DNA of 6,867 nucleotides from a virus. Lineage: Duplodnaviria; Heunggongvirae; Uroviricota; Caudoviricetes. The notes beneath the pieces were generated by a model, which saw only the letters and a program-made list of their open reading frames with translations, ran no database searches and was not told where the DNA came from. Positions within the stretch are counted from its first letter, which is position 1; every line of letters starts with the position of its first letter. Positions 58 through 6,867 of the stretch are shown one piece after another. The stretch lies in the IMG/VR virus record IMGVR_UViG_2690316345_000004. One strand, given 5' to 3'. The translations under genes were made by a program, and so were the position numbers.

Positions 58-303
58 CAAAGTCATCGGGCATTATCTGAACATAAAACACTATCAATAA
101 GTTGGAGTCATTACCGGCTTACAGATGGGTACTTTGACTTAGACTATAACGGATTTACCTATCTCGCTAGCGGTGACTTTCTTGATATTTCTTCCAACTC
201 CGAAGAAAAAGAAATCAACAACAACGGGATCACTGTTAACGTTTCGAACGTTCGAGAAGAATACATTACTCTCATTCGAAATAAGCAATTCGATAAATCA
301 GAT

Positions 304-597
304 GTGAAAATCGAAATGGTATTCCTTAACCCTAACACGGGCAAGGTTGAAACCACTTACCCTGTTTTCCGTGGTGTAGTCGATAACATCAATATTTCTA
401 TTGACTACAAGGATAAAGAATGTACCAACGAATCAGAGTTCCAGCTTAATAGTATCTGGGAAGTTCTCGATAAAAACGCTCGTAGTCATGCTTCTGATGG
501 TATTCACCGCTCATACCCAGGAAACGAGGACGATCTATTCTTCTCAAGGGCGGGTAAGTGGCAATCAGAAAGCCGCTGGCATTCTTCTAAGAAATAA
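304..597 (+). CDS. putative phage tail-tip/assembly protein, family unresolved; start uncertain
   Basis: Frame 1 ORF ending TAA 595-597. The first canonical start is GTG 304 (ATG 316 is the alternative), and neither has a good Shine-Dalgarno. The frame is actually open from 58 with protein-like sequence (DGYFDLDYNGFTYLASGDF...), so the true N-terminus probably lies upstream. Position immediately before the tail-fiber gene suggests a tail-tip protein. Confidence 0.5.
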   Translation: MKIEMVFLNPNTGKVETTYPVFRGVVDNINISIDYKDKECTNESEFQLNSIWEVLDKNARSHASDGIHRSYPGNEDDLFFSRAGKWQSESRWHSSKK

Positions 598-643: not shown

Positions 644-1072
644 ATGCTAAAAACTAGGCTTATCACTGATTACATCAATTCATTAGTAGGTCAGGAGTTC
701 GTTCAAGGCGAGAATGATTGCAATTTAATTGCATGTAAGATCATCGATATTCTCGCTGGCACTGACCTATATAATTCTCTTTATAAAAAATATTCAACGA
801 AAGAAGAAGGCTTGAAAGTCTGTAAAGAACTTAGTGGATATACCAATATCCTCCAGCCTATCAAAGAACATTTTAAATTAGTTACTGATGATTTACAGGA
901 CGGCGACCTATTGATCCGCGATCACAAATTAGGAAACCGTAAGTATTACTCCGTGACTCCTTATTATTCCGGCTATGGACTCGTTACCGAAGATGGAATC
1001 TGGACGACCAAGCCGATTTACGAAATTGATTATAACGATGCTTATCGCTTTGGGGGTGATTTATGGGCGTAG
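644..1072 (+). CDS. putative tail assembly protein with NlpC/P60-like Cys...His arrangement (lambda gpK-like C-terminal domain)
   Basis: ATG 644 is preceded by GGAGGT (631-636) at 7-nt spacing. The ORF-track start at TTG 401 would overlap the previous gene by about 200 nt and is rejected. The product has a Cys in a GENDCNLIAC context and a downstream GDLLIRDH segment, reminiscent of NlpC/P60 catalytic Cys/His motifs. Stop TAG 1070-1072 overlaps the next start (ATGGGCGTAG). Confidence 0.6.
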   Translation: MLKTRLITDYINSLVGQEFVQGENDCNLIACKIIDILAGTDLYNSLYKKYSTKEEGLKVCKELSGYTNILQPIKEHFKLVTDDLQDGDLLIRDHKLGNRKYYSVTPYYSGYGLVTEDGIWTTKPIYEIDYNDAYRFGGDLWA

Positions 1073-4000
1073 AAGTATTGGTCGGCGCGGTTATTGCTGG
1101 TGCGTCGGCTGGGATGGCTGCTGCTTCCGTGGCGGCAATTTCAACATTAGCGGCTGTTGCTATCGGTATTGGTGCTGGTGCATTGTCTTTGATTGCTTCC
1201 ACTGTAGGCGCACCGAAAACACCGAAGGTACAAAGCCCAGATAACGCGGTGACATTAGGAACATCAAACGATCCGAAAGCGGTGATACCAGTTATTTTCG
1301 GTGTTACTCGCACTGGTACAAACTGTGTTTACAAAGCAATTTCTAAGAAAGAAAACAATAAGTTAGTGCAAGTATTTTCTGTAGCCGAGGGTGAAATCGA
1401 CCATTACAAAGCACTCTTTATTGATAATAAAAATGTTCTTGTTGGTAAGAACATGACGATCCGTGATGGTATTCTCGATAAGGGCAACATTAAAGAAGAA
1501 TACCGTAAAGTGTTAGAAGTCGAGTTCCGCACGGGTAAGAATCCTAACACCGCATTGTCACTGGCAAAAACTCATTTAGGCTCAGACTGGACCGATGCTT
1601 ACAAGGGTAACGGCATTGCAACCATGTGTATTGTGTTACGTCGTGATGACAAATCTCTTGCTGCTGGTGTTGATATTCTCCAGCCAAATAGCCAGGTAGC
1701 AGTAGACGTTTGCGGCCTTAAAATCCGTAACCTTGAAACCAATGCTATTGAGGCTAGCACCAACGGCGTGGACCAGATTTTCCACTACCTAACAAATGAA
1801 AAATATGGTCTTAGTGTACCAATTGAAAACATCAACGTTGATTCATTCCTGAAAGTACGTTCTCAAGTTCGCCAGATGAATTTGCACTCTAACGGTGCAT
1901 GTGATCCGAACGCCAGCTTTAAAGAGAACTTGACCGGATTGATGCAGACTTTCGGCGGGGTGATGTTTGAATCCTTTGGACGTATTACTCTGAAACTGGA
2001 TGCTCCTGATATTGTTAAGCATACCTTCAATGAAGACAATATCATGATGGGTAAAGTTAACCTGAAAACAGGTGGCACTAACGGTTATTTCAATACCATT
2101 AACGCAATCTATCAGGAACCATCAATCGACTATTCAGAGCAAATGCTACGTTATCCGGCTGATGCTGAAAATGATGCTACTATCCGTCAAGATGGGCGCA
2201 TTATTGCTAAAGACGTAGAATATCGCTTTGTTAAAGATGAAAACCAGATTGACAAATTAGCGAGCATTGAACGAAATAAATCTCGTATTACTCAGGTTAT
2301 CAACTTCACTACTACCGATGCATTCAGCGCGGAAGTCTGGGACGTTATCAGCGTTACCCACGATGAATTGAAACTGAATAATTCACTTTGGCGTATTATC
2401 TCTATTGAGCGTAGCATTGATTCTGGTATTGCTGGTATTTTGTCTATCACCGCCACAGAATATAATTCTCAGATTTACACAGATCTGGATTATGCGGCTA
2501 AACCGGACAATAGACCAAGTGGTTTACCGGATTCAATGACAGTACAGAAGCCTACTAATTTCAGAATTAAGGCAACTGGCGAGACGATTTACGGTAAAAA
2601 TGTTACTTTGACATGGGATGCACCGGAAGATTTTAACCGCTACGGCTTCCAGATTGATTACCGTGTAAGCGGATCACCTAACTGGATTAAGCTCGGTCAG
2701 ACTTCACAGCAAATTTTCAATGTCAATGCACTGGCTAAAGATCGCTCCTACGATTACCGAGTTTGTGCTTTCGGTATCATCGCGCGATCCGATTGGGTAG
2801 AACTGATTAACCAGAATCCGACTGTTACCTATGAATTGCCGACTCCGGTTATTCGAATCAAAAATCAGGGTAGCACGCCAGGAACTTTCGAAGGTAATGA
2901 TCTGATTATCGAATGGGATAACCAGCAAGGCTTAGATGTTGAGATCAACGGTGAAACTAACAAGTTTAGTGACCTGTTTGAAGCATACATTATCAAGGTG
3001 ACTAACAAGGCTGGTAAGTCTATTCAGTACCGTACCCGCGATCCTGAATCATGGACTTATACGCTTGATATGAACCAGTTTAACGGCCTTTCGCGTCAAC
3101 TGACGGTAGAAGTATCAGCTAAGGGATATAACAACTCAGAGAGCGCCCCAGCGCGTTTAGTGGCTATCAACCCACAACATAAGCCAATGAAAGGTTTTAG
3201 TGCGCGTGGTGGCTTTAATACTGCGTTTGTTAGCTGGGCGGATGACGTAGAACATGACTATGCAGGGTCAATCATCCAGTATGCAACCGACAACACTTTC
3301 TCAGATGCAAGGGCAGTAAGCACGAATAGTGTTAGCCATACTTCCTTTGATATTGCTGACGGTGATTATTATATCCGTGGTGCTCACTACGATATTTTCG
3401 GTATGGATGATGCTGTTTGGTCTGAACCGTATTTCATGCAAATGAAATCTACCATTAGCTGGGACGATCAGGACAAAGAAGCACTGGAAGACCTGATTGG
3501 TTTACAAGATCGCTTAGATGAAACCATCGCTGATGCTATTGCTCAAGCTGGCGCTAATGCCGATGCTAAAATTGATGCAATGCATAAGCAAATCACTACC
3601 GAGACGGGTAAAACTGTTCAAGCCTCAGCCGATACCTTAAAGAGTCTGATTGCTTCTGGTGATAAGGCAAGTTCAACTAAGATTGATCAGGTTAAAGCTG
3701 AACTGAAAGGCGATATCACCAAAGAAGTTAGCGCATCTGCTACTACCCTGAAACAAGCAATTGCAACCAGTGAGGCAGCAAGCGCAAGTAAGATTGACCA
3801 AGTTCGGGTAGAAATGGATGGCAAGATTGCTGGTGTGAATCAGGAAGCAGATGTAAAAATCGATGCTTTGAAAGGAACCATTAACAGCAAATACAATCTG
3901 GCAGTTAATGCAGATGGTCGCGTGGCTGGCATTCACATGAGCGCAACCAACGATCCGGCACAACCGACTAAAATCATCTTTACGGCTGATAAAATTGCTG

Positions 4001-4815
4001 TAGCTCCGCAGAACGGGACCGATGTTTGCCCGTTTGGTATCGAAGGTAACAAGGTTTATCTCGATAATGCGATGATTCGTAATGCTGCAATTGGCACAGC
4101 CCAGATTAATGATGCGGCAATTACTACCGCTAAGATCGGAAATGCTGCAATTAACAGCGCGAAGATTCAGGACGGGGCGATCACCAATGCGAAGATCGTA
4201 AACGGCGCAATTGATAATGCTAAAATTGGTAACTATATCCAGTCTTCAAACTGGAACGGATCTACCGGATGGCATATCAACAAGAACGGGTCCGCTACGT
4301 TCATGAACGCTACCGTTAAAGGTAATATCACGGCTGATTCTGGTACTCTGAACAACGTCACGATTAACTCTAGCTGTGTTATTAAGGGTATGCTTGAAGC
4401 TACTCAGGTTAAGGGTGATTTCGTTAAGGTGATTGGTAAGAAATTCCCTCATCGTCAACAAAACTGGCCTGATGGCACTGTTACGGTAAGGGTGGAAGAT
4501 GATCATAAGTTTGATCGCCAAATTGTGATTCCAGCTATTCACCATAACGGGTCTGTTCGTCGTGGCGAAAGTAGTGATCATTGGGACACTTGCCGATTAA
4601 TCGTTAAGAAAAATGGCTCTGTTCTATATGATCGCACGGCTACTTCTGGCAGCATGTACACAGGCGTTATTGACATGCCAGCGGGTAAAGGTGCTGTAAC
4701 GTTAACATTCCAAGTTATTTGTGATGGTGTTAACAACTATAACCCAAGTGCATATATCAGCGATCTAACAGTAATGGTAACTAAAAAAGCCACTACTGGT
4801 ATTACTGTTTCTTAA
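1063..4815 (+). CDS. central tail fiber / host specificity protein, lambda gpJ-like, with a gpI-like N-terminal module
   Basis: 1250-codon ORF with ATG 1063 preceded by GGGGGTGA (1052-1059). The C-terminal ~160 aa (EDDHKFDRQIVIP, IDMPAGKGAVTLTF, DLTVMVTKKATTGITVS) closely resemble the recalled C-terminal receptor-binding region of lambda J (TDDHPFDRQIVV, VDMPAGRGNVILTF, DVQVMVIKKQALGISVV). The middle holds FN3-like beta-sandwich segments and an Ala/Lys/Asp-rich coiled-coil stretch. The first ~95 aa are a Gly/Ala-rich hydrophobic segment followed by APKTPKV...VIPVIFGVTRTG, resembling the C-terminal half of lambda gpI. Confidence 0.92.
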   Translation: MGVEVLVGAVIAGASAGMAAASVAAISTLAAVAIGIGAGALSLIASTVGAPKTPKVQSPDNAVTLGTSNDPKAVIPVIFGVTRTGTNCVYKAISKKENNKLVQVFSVAEGEIDHYKALFIDNKNVLVGKNMTIRDGILDKGNIKEEYRKVLEVEFRTGKNPNTALSLAKTHLGSDWTDAYKGNGIATMCIVLRRDDKSLAAGVDILQPNSQVAVDVCGLKIRNLETNAIEASTNGVDQIFHYLTNEKYGLSVPIENINVDSFLKVRSQVRQMNLHSNGACDPNASFKENLTGLMQTFGGVMFESFGRITLKLDAPDIVKHTFNEDNIMMGKVNLKTGGTNGYFNTINAIYQEPSIDYSEQMLRYPADAENDATIRQDGRIIAKDVEYRFVKDENQIDKLASIERNKSRITQVINFTTTDAFSAEVWDVISVTHDELKLNNSLWRIISIERSIDSGIAGILSITATEYNSQIYTDLDYAAKPDNRPSGLPDSMTVQKPTNFRIKATGETIYGKNVTLTWDAPEDFNRYGFQIDYRVSGSPNWIKLGQTSQQIFNVNALAKDRSYDYRVCAFGIIARSDWVELINQNPTVTYELPTPVIRIKNQGSTPGTFEGNDLIIEWDNQQGLDVEINGETNKFSDLFEAYIIKVTNKAGKSIQYRTRDPESWTYTLDMNQFNGLSRQLTVEVSAKGYNNSESAPARLVAINPQHKPMKGFSARGGFNTAFVSWADDVEHDYAGSIIQYATDNTFSDARAVSTNSVSHTSFDIADGDYYIRGAHYDIFGMDDAVWSEPYFMQMKSTISWDDQDKEALEDLIGLQDRLDETIADAIAQAGANADAKIDAMHKQITTETGKTVQASADTLKSLIASGDKASSTKIDQVKAELKGDITKEVSASATTLKQAIATSEAASASKIDQVRVEMDGKIAGVNQEADVKIDALKGTINSKYNLAVNADGRVAGIHMSATNDPAQPTKIIFTADKIAVAPQNGTDVCPFGIEGNKVYLDNAMIRNAAIGTAQINDAAITTAKIGNAAINSAKIQDGAITNAKIVNGAIDNAKIGNYIQSSNWNGSTGWHINKNGSATFMNATVKGNITADSGTLNNVTINSSCVIKGMLEATQVKGDFVKVIGKKFPHRQQNWPDGTVTVRVEDDHKFDRQIVIPAIHHNGSVRRGESSDHWDTCRLIVKKNGSVLYDRTATSGSMYTGVIDMPAGKGAVTLTFQVICDGVNNYNPSAYISDLTVMVTKKATTGITVS
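4078..4227 (+). repeat. five tandem 30-nt (10-codon) repeats inside the J-like CDS
   Basis: Directly visible: RNAAIGTAQI / NDAAITTAKI / GNAAINSAKI / QDGAITNAKI / VNGAIDNAKI, each encoded by a 30-nt unit (e.g. aatgctgcaatt...aagat[ct]) in head-to-tail register. Confidence 0.85.
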
Positions 4816-4920: not shown

Positions 4921-5199
4921 ATGACTGAAATTATATATGGCGGTATCGGTGTTATCGCCTTAATTTGTGGTGGATTATGGAGGCTTCACCGAAATCAATT
5001 AGCCACAGAAAATAGATTGTCGAAATTAGAATCCAGCGACGCATTGTTAAACCAGAAGTTTGAGACGATGCAGAATAACCATACTCAGATTGCTGAACGT
5101 GTTTACCAAATGGAACAAACACTACACGGTATAGAGAAGAAAGTGGTTGCGATGGACGCCAAATTTGACCAAGTTCTCGACATACTCAAACAAAAATAA
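4921..5199 (+). CDS. hypothetical membrane-anchored coiled-coil protein (92 aa)
   Basis: ATG 4921 preceded by GGGGG (4912-4916). One N-terminal hydrophobic segment (IIYGGIGVIALICGGLW), a basic flank (RLHRNQ), then a heptad-like helical region. Ends with three in-frame stops TAATAATAA (5197-5205). Confidence 0.7.
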   Translation: MTEIIYGGIGVIALICGGLWRLHRNQLATENRLSKLESSDALLNQKFETMQNNHTQIAERVYQMEQTLHGIEKKVVAMDAKFDQVLDILKQK

Positions 5200-5217: not shown

Positions 5218-5388
5218 ATGAAGAATAAACTTAAGAAATATTTTGGTTATCTCTTGATTGTCGCCCTCACTTATAACGTAGCAATTAGACCTCTGCTTAC
5301 GTCCTTTGGGCTTGAACTCCCGGCTATGACCGTGGATGAACAATTGCTCAGGACACTGGCGGGGGTCTTTTCGTTATTAGGGGGCTAA
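5218..5388 (+). CDS. hypothetical small hydrophobic protein (56 aa), absent from the supplied ORF track
   Basis: ATG 5218 preceded by AAAGGGG (5205-5211). Translation: MKNKLKKYFGYLLIVALTYNVAIRPLLTSFGLELPAMTVDEQLLRTLAGVFSLLGG. Lys-rich N-terminus followed by a hydrophobic stretch. Stop TAA 5386-5388 lies 1 nt before the next ATG (TAACATG), indicating translational coupling; it fills the gap between two well-supported genes. Confidence 0.5.
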   Translation: MKNKLKKYFGYLLIVALTYNVAIRPLLTSFGLELPAMTVDEQLLRTLAGVFSLLGG

Positions 5389-6391: not shown

Positions 6392-6745
6392 ATGTTAAGC
6401 AAGCATTTTTCTCGCAAGGAATTTAAATGTAAATGCGGAAAATGTGATTATGATACTATCGACGCTGAACTGCTGGTAATTCTTGAGGATGTACGCGAAC
6501 ACTTCGGGAAACCAGTAATTATTAACAGCGGGAACCGTTGTCCGACTCATAATAAGAATGTAGGCGGTGCAACCAATAGCTACCATGTTCGAGGCCGTGC
6601 GGTTGATATTGTAGTGAAAGGCGTCTCGCCTGATATTGTCCATGCTTATCTTGATGGGAAATATCCTACCAAGTATGGCTTAGGAAAGTATAAAACCTTC
6701 ACGCACATTGATAGTCGTTCAACGAAATCACGCTGGCATGGATAA
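6392..6745 (+). CDS. peptidase M15 family zinc metallopeptidase (Peptidase_M15_3 / YcbK-like fold), putative endolysin
   Basis: ATG 6392 preceded by AGGGGG (6382-6387); the TTG 6356 start in the ORF track is rejected. Motifs INSGNRCPTHNKNVGGATNSYHVRGRAVD and FTHID match the His-x6-Asp ... His zinc-binding signature of M15 peptidases. No signal peptide or SAR-like N-terminus. Confidence 0.85.
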   Translation: MLSKHFSRKEFKCKCGKCDYDTIDAELLVILEDVREHFGKPVIINSGNRCPTHNKNVGGATNSYHVRGRAVDIVVKGVSPDIVHAYLDGKYPTKYGLGKYKTFTHIDSRSTKSRWHG

Positions 6746-6816
6746 AATTAAAGCGCCTCTAGTGGGTAATGCCGATCAGTTAAGGATCAGTTGACCGATC
6801 CAGTGGCTGTGTAAGA

Positions 6817-6850
6817 ATCCGGAAACGCTCACTTGTTTCCGGATTTTTTT
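6817..6850 (+). terminator. rho-independent terminator
   Basis: Perfect 10-bp inverted repeat atccggaaac (6817-6826) / gtttccggat (6835-6844) with an 8-nt loop, followed by a run of seven T (6844-6850). Confidence 0.7.
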
Positions 6851-6867
6851 ATGCACATTGGACAGGC

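Follow-up and report, generated by a model that had tools for sequence, protein, structure and literature searches.

The tail tip protein gpI of phage lambda is a separate protein of 223 amino acids. Its N-terminal part, residues 14-97, is a ubiquitin-like domain (PF06805), and its partner, gpK, contains a JAB domain. gpI has been described as a plug that is formed by three copies and contains predicted transmembrane helices (PMC11101478, PMC10721106); the helices H1 and H2 were described, and the plug was defined as residues 159-175, in the first of these two studies (PMC11101478). The C-terminal half of gpI has been named TAPI-C by Iyer and colleagues (PMC1779556), and fusions of TAPI and TAPJ were noted as early as 2006 (Iyer, Burroughs and Aravind, PMC1779556). 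In RcGTA g15 and the R4C "megatron" an N-terminal iris or penetration domain closes the channel and has been proposed to enter the outer membrane; the iris was described to span residues 1-46 and to contain one ordered helix. The publications consulted on this domain do not equate the iris with gpI. In T5 pb3 the IPVVYG strand (around residue 262) directly follows the plug, and the membrane-inserting tip comprises residues 233-236. For the Aeromonas siphophage Avs-1, cryo-EM revealed that the N-terminus of gp23 forms a gpI-like tripod (PMC13612043).

The window, i.e., the whole stretch of 6,867 nucleotides that was analyzed, is a decayed E. coli prophage fragment with IS1/IS4 at its ends, and therefore its J-like protein may never enter a particle in this host. 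That protein is very probably a siphophage tail-tip hub or central-fibre protein, in which the first approximately 96 residues represent the C-terminal half of gpI in single-chain form (Table 1). Both the window module and the C-terminal half of lambda gpI (PDB 8IYK, 8XCG, 9E7M) consist of a hydrophobic, Gly/Ala-rich segment, a linker, and a strand in the same order, and both are encoded directly 5' of J-type hub sequence. However, the window module forms the N-terminal end of the J-like protein and has no ubiquitin-like domain, and the protein at the K position has no JAB domain. The TAPI-TAPJ fusions and the N-terminal columns of PHROG 31 likewise combine gpI-type and J-type sequence in one polypeptide, but the fusions were described as containing TAPI including the ubiquitin-like domain, in contrast to the window protein, which contains the TAPI-C part alone. 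RcGTA and R4C share with the window a DUF2163-type hub, a small gene at the peptidase position, and a large hub/fibre protein with a hydrophobic N-terminus. T5 pb3 (PDB 7ZHJ, 7ZQB) matches residues ~67-330 best in both sequence and fold, but its chain also includes an HDI domain equivalent to gpL, and its plug is a domain inside the chain that forms a beta-hairpin, whereas the plug candidate of the window protein is its N-terminal hydrophobic segment. Avs-1 gp23, going by its published description (PMC13612043), appears to represent the same single-chain solution as the window protein. The single-chain layout is already known from these published precedents, and no new mechanism is revealed by the locus.

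Table 1. Features of the window and the observations on which their assignment is based.
Feature	Position	Strand	Basis and remarks
DUF2163-type hub gene, 3' part (gpL / GTA g13 position)	116..597	+	phrog_2048; truncated by IS1
DUF6950 protein, 142 aa	644..1072	+	Pfam DUF6950, E=2e-11; lambda K / RcGTA g14 position
GGGGG, Shine-Dalgarno-like run	1052..1056	+	6 nt 5' of the ATG at 1063; read from the sequence
J-like tail-tip / baseplate hub protein, 1250 aa, including the gpI-like N-terminal module	1063..4815	+	Single ORF
Residues 1-49, nearly uncharged Gly/Ala/Val/Ile/Ser segment	1063..1209	+	Composition, hydropathy
Residues 50-72, polar linker APKTPKVQSPDNAVTLGTSNDPK	1210..1278	+	BLASTP, hhalign; counterpart of the gpI plug region APKARTPRIQTTDNGKQNTYF (gpI 155-175)
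Residues 73-96, strand motif AVIPVIFGVTRTGTNCVYKAISKK	1279..1350	+	Counterpart of gpI 188-211 (NVLPVLYGEMRVGSRVVSQEIS) and of T5 pb3 ~262-285
Residues 97-480, start of the J/pb3-type hub domains	1351..2502	+	LVQVFSVAEGEIDHY corresponds to lambda J LLSVIDAISEGPIEG

Neighbouring genes and the J-like hub

A gpL-like DUF2163 hub gene is followed by a small DUF6950 gene at the K/g14 position, and then by the gpI-C-like module, the J-like hub, the fibre, and a lambda-type receptor-binding domain. The same gene order was found in intact relatives (RefSeq annotation) and in one metagenomic relative. The product of the truncated first gene matches positions 214-362 of the 390 positions of phrog_2048 "tail protein" (E=1.5e-21), the score of PF09931 against the DUF2163-type hub is 25.9 bits, just under the cut-off of 26, and an intact counterpart of 217 amino acids, annotated as DUF2163, is encoded at 19825-20478 of the related locus L002. 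Lambda K contains Prok-JAB and NLPC_P60 (Pfam), in contrast to the upstream gene of the window, which encodes DUF6950 alone, without a JAB/MPN domain. Pairwise BLASTP detected no similarity between the DUF6950 protein and lambda K, and the NlpC/P60 region of lambda K matched DUF6950 weakly (E=0.067). BLASTP also detected no similarity between the tape-measure C-terminus of a relative and lambda gpH.

No separate gene lies between the K and the J positions, no JAB/NlpC/P60 partner is present at the K position, and a single ORF extends from 1063. The preliminary description had stated that the window lacks a separate gpI gene and that the ubiquitin-like N-domain of gpI is not evident, and both statements held when the search was extended. 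Pfam detected no PF06805-type ubiquitin-like domain, either in residues 1-110 alone or in the complete protein of 1250 residues, and a ubiquitin-like, gpI-type ORF was absent from all frames of the 36 loci examined (the window plus 35 related loci), with lambda as a positive control (E=4e-48). The joint absence of the ubiquitin-like and JAB domains fits the idea that they are a functional, accessory pair, which is specific to phages with the split arrangement and a separate plug protein.

In a profile search of the PDB the best match of the hub was T5 pb3 (258-568, E=1.7e-30), in which IPVVYG is internal to the chain, and gpJ was also found (E=3e-14). In the C-terminal part Pfam identified Phage_Tail_Tip and Ig_GpJ_C (PF09327, E=2e-22; PF12421, E=3e-35), and the C-terminal fibre/receptor-binding part matched the gpJ fragment PDB 9wca (E=1e-48) and lambda J 946-1131 (E=2e-36). 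PF13550 had no match in the window protein, though relatives carry it. An AlphaFold2 (AF2) model built from 11 close sequences was discarded (mean pLDDT 45), and a model of residues 1-330 based on an alignment of 16 diverse sequences was used, which is usable from residue ~70. Residues 70-330 have pLDDT values of 80-93, whereas the values are below 50 at residues 1-65, and thus no plug structure was obtained. With the model of residues 1-330, Foldseek retrieved T5 pb3 (E=1e-15), the RcGTA virion chain 6tba_8A (E=1e-7), and lambda tail-tip chains (E=3e-5). The link of the window protein to RcGTA is this fold match only; sequence similarity to RcGTA g15 was not detected, and no RcGTA chain was found at E<=1 in the PDB profile search or when the distant relative P0201 was compared with the PDB. 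Taken together, the sequence profiles and the predicted fold place the window protein among the J/pb3-type hubs of the Phage-tail_3 superfamily.

The model also bears on the possibility that the module is cleaved off after translation, e.g., by the adjacent DUF6950 protein, which is possibly a papain-like peptidase, so that a free gpI-like peptide and a shortened fibre would result. The lambda plug is a separate polypeptide, but T5 pb3 retains the equivalent strand in one chain, and the structures of RcGTA, R4C, and Avs-1 show the N-terminal segment attached to the hub protein. Processing of TAPI by K-type peptidases has been proposed (Iyer et al., PMC1779556), and the K-position gene of the window does encode DUF6950, with its weak match to the NlpC/P60 region of lambda K. 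A polar stretch, KKENNK (residues 95-100), is present at the junction of module and hub; however, neither a cleavage motif nor a conserved junction was identified, and a strand predicted at residues 81-93 (pLDDT 80-86) is linked by a short turn to a second strand predicted at residues 100-109. We therefore regard cleavage as improbable, and a module that remains covalently attached to the hub as the far better explanation.

Homology of the module to the C-terminal half of gpI

The first approximately 50 residues had been described as an almost purely hydrophobic stretch of Gly, Ala, Val, Ile, and Ser, which is correct for residues 1-49, with their single charged residue (15 Ala, 8 Gly, 7 Val, 5 Ile, 5 Ser, 4 Leu, 2 Met, 2 Thr, and 1 Glu) and Kyte-Doolittle means of 1.4-1.95 for 19-mers. 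This segment is the counterpart of gpI ~105-152, which contains the predicted transmembrane helices H1/H2, and the HMM alignments onto gpI begin at gpI 107-110. The hydrophobic part is of low complexity, and its alignment to H1/H2 carries little information. An interpretation as signal peptide was rejected, because the segment comprises 49 residues, has no basic n-region, and is common to a virion lumen protein.

The downstream part of the module contains two motifs in common with gpI, TP(K/R)(V/I)Q..DN and PV.(Y/F)G..R.G. The window linker reads TPKVQSPDN and the lambda plug motif TPRIQTTDN, and the strand of the window reads IPVIFG..R.G. The highest-scoring stretch of the HMM alignments is iPViYGerrvgG, and I75, P76, G80, and G85 show no variation in alignment A1. 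APKTPKVQSPDN represents residues 50-61, VIPVIFGVTRTGTNCVYKAIS residues 74-94, and LVQVFSVAEGEIDHY residues 101-115 of the window protein, and the lambda strings quoted in the preliminary description turned out to be correct (gpI 154-168, gpI 189-209, and J 23-37).

It has to be considered whether convergence or composition could account for the resemblance to gpI, i.e., whether a hydrophobic N-terminus and a generic beta-strand have arisen independently. Part of the data could be read in this way: residues 1-49 are of low complexity, pairwise BLASTP of the window protein with gpI yielded 32% identity over gpI 105-218 with a score of 24.6 bits (E=3e-4, for a single comparison), and a narrow HMM of lambda-like gpI proteins scored the window N-terminus with 11.0 bits (rank 3 of 2001), which does not separate it from its own shuffles. 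Because the narrow HMM fails on the window alone, the significance comes from family profiles, and mostly from residues ~47-97. A module HMM was built from 80 family members, and 2000 shuffled C-terminal halves of gpI were used as composition-matched decoys. With this HMM lambda gpI (gpI 110-211) scored 35.5 bits (E~5e-13 at Z=1) and the best decoy 11.7 bits, a difference of 24 bits. The alignment by hhalign had a probability of 96.4% (E=1e-9) and covers residues 47-97 of the window protein and gpI 153-211, that is, the non-hydrophobic part. Furthermore, a profile search retrieved gpI (119-213, E=2.2e-5) from 177,635 PDB sequences, and in the same search the I-like protein of the F2-pyocin was found with E=0.01. 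In PHROGs, phrog_31 "central tail fiber J" is matched in the same region by the window N-terminus (columns 181-294) and by gpI (columns 132-276, with residues 54-209 of gpI). On the family profile gpI occupies positions 6-112 and gpJ positions 114-437 (102 bits), and an artificial concatenation of gpI and gpJ is recognized as one domain over positions 6-437 with 136.9 bits. gpI and gpJ are thus strictly collinear with the single chain, with the same gene order and both motifs in common, and an independent origin is very unlikely.

The profile comparisons consequently indicate that residues 1-96 (window positions 1063-1350) are homologous to and collinear with gpI ~107-211, and that the alignment with J follows directly thereafter. 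This is in agreement with the preliminary description, which had likened the first residues to the C-terminal half of gpI and had placed the alignment with lambda J only after them; the former can now be said at the level of profiles. It had also suggested a comparison with the Lambda_tail_I family. No match was obtained with the Pfam model, while the alignment to gpI itself is significant by profile; that check could not have passed, because PF06805 models only the ubiquitin-like domain, gpI 14-97. More generally, scans of Pfam and NCBIfam yielded no meaningful match for the module, because neither collection contains a model of TAPI-C. A search with the C-terminal half of lambda gpI retrieved only relatives with at least 68% identity, and the narrow gpI HMM mentioned above was derived from these.

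Reading frame and distribution of the single-chain form

The ATG of the J-like gene is located at 1063-1065, and the TAG stop codon of the DUF6950 gene at 1070-1072, which gives an overlap of 10 nt between the two genes. Between the ATG and the nearest in-frame stop codon on its 5' side there is a single open codon (TGA TTT ATG in the window and TGA TCT ATG in L002), the start context of the related loci L004 and L005 is TAA TAA TGG, and the element GGGGGTGA is kept in L002, L004, and L005. A single open codon before the start was found in all of the 30 IMG/VR relatives (30/30), and the same start is annotated by PGAP in relatives. The assignment of the start, which had been based on the GGGGG run and the stop/start overlap, is thus strengthened by the fixed context and by the agreement of the 30 IMG/VR relatives. 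Codons 1-100 have pN/pS values of 0.23-0.34, and the module is under purifying selection. A true start of the fibre at codon ~95-102, with the upstream part being a separate small product or an annotation artefact, is extremely unlikely and was rejected, because the sole candidate for the internal Met near residue 95 that had been considered, an in-frame GTG at codon 102, is not preceded by a Shine-Dalgarno sequence, the next ATG is codon 131 and lies inside the conserved hub, no stop codon separates module and hub, selection keeps the module in frame, and the module is contiguous with the hub in more than 100 distant relatives.

Word-indexed searches retrieved only seven (residues 1-110) and eight (residues 1-500) close or partial relatives, and a single-protein locus scan found relatives with 87-98% identity only, so that an exhaustive search was needed. 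Exhaustive phmmer identified 1545 relatives, and the family thus comprises at least 1545 clusters at 50% identity. Among the best 150 matches, most align from residues 1-10 of both proteins, and a hydrophobic N-terminus, defined as a 19-mer with a Kyte-Doolittle value of at least 1.6 within the first 80 residues, is present in 119 of these 150 best representatives. About 10 of the 150 have neither the hydrophobic segment nor a separate gene for it, and therefore not every member of the family depends on the segment. Most members of this very large tail-tip protein family have the single-chain layout. The apparent fusion of I and J had been presented as unusual, which was an overestimation in view of these numbers and of the published structural and comparative precedents. 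A survey of related phages for fused versus separate genes had been proposed as well; the fused form is the usual one, and no separate ubiquitin-type gpI was found in the 36 loci.

Proposed function and evolution of the module

By analogy with the solved structures of lambda, T5, RcGTA, R4C, and Avs-1, the module most likely forms a trimeric plug, which would close the tail-tip lumen until receptor binding, when it would be set free in the direction of the outer membrane. In the trimer, the strand at residues ~75-95 would be an integral strand of the first beta-sheet of the hub; in lambda the equivalent contact would be formed between two chains, by beta-sheet augmentation in trans. Together, the linkers (residues ~50-72) and the hydrophobic segments (residues 1-49) of the three chains would occupy and seal the lumen below the tape measure C-terminus. 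Once the C-terminal domain binds the receptor, the hub would open, and the hydrophobic N-termini would move out to the outer membrane, and probably into it, before the tape measure protein and the DNA.

The sequence comparisons also allow a tentative proposal about evolution, which we consider possible but somewhat doubtful, namely that the single-chain form is ancestral and that gpI is a detached N-terminus of the hub, which later gained the ubiquitin-like domain, with a JAB domain arising in gpK to deal with it. If this were true, the E. coli prophage subfamily, which keeps a plug motif close to that of lambda, would be a natural, covalently linked control for the roles of the ubiquitin-like and JAB domains and of the split of I and J, and could be used to address their roles in tail-tip assembly and in channel opening.

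The statistics reported above identify the structural half of gpI, which in lambda plugs the lumen and has helices predicted to insert into the membrane, with the N-termini of a very large tail-tip family. This is of relevance for annotation, as these N-termini have no Pfam or NCBIfam model at present, and phages that have been described to have "no gpI analogue" probably carry the gpI part inside their J-like protein.

Similarity of the fiber N-terminus to lambda gpI

Residues 1-49 of the J-like protein contain a single charged residue, all others being Ala, Gly, Val, Ile, Ser, Leu, Met, or Thr, and the motifs named in the preliminary description are located at residues 50-61, 74-94, and 101-115. 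The lambda gpI and J strings quoted there agree with the actual protein sequences. In a single pairwise BLASTP comparison, residues 10-104 aligned with gpI 105-218 (32% identity, E = 3e-4). Pfam Lambda_tail_I spans only gpI 14-97, which is the ubiquitin-like domain, and NCBIfam contains no model of the module. Because these curated libraries were unable to decide the likeness to gpI, the family was gathered by exhaustive phmmer searches (query residues 1-480, E <= 1e-3), which yielded 1545 representatives. Most of the best 150 of these align from their own first residues.

A module HMM built from 80 family members and the window protein, with gpI left out, matched lambda gpI with 35.5 bits (covering gpI 110-211) and gpI relatives with 36-42 bits among the matches listed, in contrast to a top score of 11.7 bits for 2000 shuffled gpI C-halves. 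An hhalign comparison of the module alignment with the gpI C-half alignment aligned window residues 47-97 with gpI 153-211 (probability 96.4%, E = 1e-9). When a 16-sequence profile was searched against all PDB sequences, it retrieved gpI (E = 2.2e-5), the F2-pyocin I-like protein (E = 0.01), gpJ (E = 3e-14), and T5 pb3 (E = 1.7e-30), and in PHROGs the columns of phrog_31 ("central tail fiber J") matched by gpI overlap with those matched by the window N-terminus. With a narrow lambda-type gpI HMM, the window N-terminus could not be told apart from shuffled versions of itself, and therefore the case depends on the family profiles and on residues 47-97, which are not hydrophobic. On the profile of the first ~480 residues gpI occupies positions 6-112 and gpJ positions 114-437, and an artificial gpI+gpJ concatenation is matched as one domain (136.9 bits). 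Thus, the claims that the fiber begins with a gpI-like part, and that the similarity to J starts only behind it, are borne out. Judged by these comparisons, the window protein holds a homologue of the gpI half other than the ubiquitin-like (Ubl) domain, and the module represents an annotation gap, being without a curated model.

Gene start, missing gpI gene and distribution of the single-chain layout

The start codon ATG at 1063 is preceded by GGGGG (1052-1056), the gene overlaps the stop of the preceding gene by 10 nt, and there is a single open in-frame codon upstream, in the window as well as in 30 of 30 IMG/VR relatives, so that the proposed ORF start is well supported. The preceding context is TGA TTT ATG in the window, TGA TCT ATG in the related locus L002, and TAA TAA TGG in L004 and L005. 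Near residue 95, where an internal start had been considered, no credible start codon exists. In comparison with E. coli relatives pN/pS is 0.23-0.34 for codons 1-100 and ~0.15 for codons 101-480; therefore, the module is translated in this frame and under constraint.

No ORF matching the gpI Ubl domain was detected in any frame of the window and 35 related loci, while lambda itself, the positive control, was found with E = 4e-48; the description of a missing separate gpI gene and Ubl domain therefore holds. Unlike lambda K, the K-position protein of the window has no JAB domain. Because it lacks the Ubl domain and is not encoded by a separate gene, the window protein is not a member of the Pfam-defined gpI family. 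The gpI C-half has already been named TAPI-C, and TAPI-TAPJ fusions (TAPJ, J-type protein) have been noted in some prophages (Iyer et al., 2006; PMC1779556). In contrast to those, the window protein has TAPI-C alone. The added value is modest, namely, the statistical link between gpI-C and the N-termini of this family and the observation that the Ubl and JAB domains are missing together.

A strongly hydrophobic 19-mer is present within the first 80 residues in 119 of the 150 best representatives. In the ~80 representatives matching the pattern, the hydrophobic part is followed by P(V/I/L)x(Y/F)G, mostly at ~residue 45-100. About ten representatives without the hydrophobic segment, among them P0161, P0166, P0183, P0202, and P0212, begin at the PVxYG strand. 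One of these ten is encoded on a metagenome contig (L006, 1587-7066), where only 20 nt separate the DUF6950 and J-like genes, and therefore no gene at that position supplies the hydrophobic part. Distant family members contain Pfam Phage-tail_3. The single-chain state is the majority in the family and has structural precedents.

Predicted fold and possible role in the tail tip

In an AF2 model based on an alignment of 16 diverse sequences, residues 70-330 have pLDDT values of 80-93 and residues 1-65 values below 50. A gpI-like strand (81-93) is followed by a strand at the J-like start (100-109), and the order of secondary structure elements suggests that both might pair. Foldseek searches of the PDB retrieved T5 pb3 (E = 1e-15), a chain of the RcGTA virion (1e-7), and chains of the lambda tail tip (3e-5), and also DT57C, Chi, and JBD30. 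The J-like protein is a mosaic of a T5 pb3/GTA-like hub and, in its last ~180 residues, a lambda-J-type receptor-binding domain. The latter resembles PDB 9wca "A8 gpJ 713" (E = 1e-48) more closely than lambda J (E = 2e-36), and this may point to a porin-type receptor.

The part of lambda gpI that begins at residue 101 or 135 plugs the tip lumen as a trimer beneath the gpH C-terminal coiled coil, with beta-strands threaded through the gpJ hub domains; its two hydrophobic helices are predicted to be transmembrane and are gone from the lumen upon LamB binding (PMC11101478, PMC10721106). The N-terminus of Avs-1 gp23 is a gpI-like tripod (PMC13612043), the megatron proteins of RcGTA and R4C close the channel by an N-terminal hydrophobic iris/penetration domain, and phage Miki, which lacks gpI, has a J-like protein that opens with two helices. 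T5 pb3 has an internal plug, the tip of which (233-236) shortly precedes the strand aligned at ~262 by the family profile. By analogy to these structures, the gpI-like part very probably works like the gpI C-half: the N-termini would plug the tail-tip lumen and, once the lambda-type C-terminal domain has bound its receptor, would be set free towards the outer membrane.

Genomic setting and relatives

The window is a piece of an E. coli prophage, and two different insertion sequences lie at its ends, which therefore bracket a tail-tip and lysis fragment.

Features of the window
Feature	Position	Remark
IS1 end	1-115	3' end of insB and terminal inverted repeat ending at 115
DUF2163-type hub gene, 3' part	116-597	broken by IS1
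DUF6950 gene	644-1072	
J-like gene	1063-4815	1250 aa
Lambda-J-type receptor-binding domain	4267-4815	residues 1069-1250
Small ORF	4921-5199	92 aa; N-terminal hydrophobic segment, then weak coiled-coil-type Pfam matches
Small ORF	5218-5388	56 aa, hydrophobic
M15 endolysin gene	6392-6745	
IS4 end	6763-6867	begins 18 nt past the endolysin stop

Of 5426 complete E. coli genomes, 57 contain the region at 87-97% identity, as do 30 IMG/VR contigs with lengths of ~35 kb. Compared to the intact gene of the E. coli RMDEC332 prophage, the first ~59 codons of the hub gene are absent. In an intact relative, the tail tube and chaperone genes are followed by an 839-aa gene and then by the genes for a 186-aa protein, the DUF2163 hub, DUF6950, and the J-like protein; the 839-aa gene, annotated "hypothetical protein", sits at the tape-measure position, and the annotation lists no gpI gene. 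Four small ORFs also lie between the two IS ends of the window. The 92-aa and 56-aa ORFs, located between the J-like and endolysin genes and kept as annotated genes in relatives, look like candidates for holins or other lysis accessories.

In some relatives, among them E. coli PK8568 (L005, 1553-2323), the hub and DUF6950 genes are separated by an additional gene with a NUMOD3 domain, which may encode a homing endonuclease and is absent from the window. Escherichia phage DCP80 (PQ671644; L003, 8296-12609) encodes a homologue (41% identity) that shares the N-terminal module, and an unannotated DUF6950-like ORF lies in the gap upstream of it. This 141 kb record is classified as a T4-like Straboviridae phage, for which a siphophage-type tail-tip module is odd, and it may represent a chimeric assembly or a misclassification.
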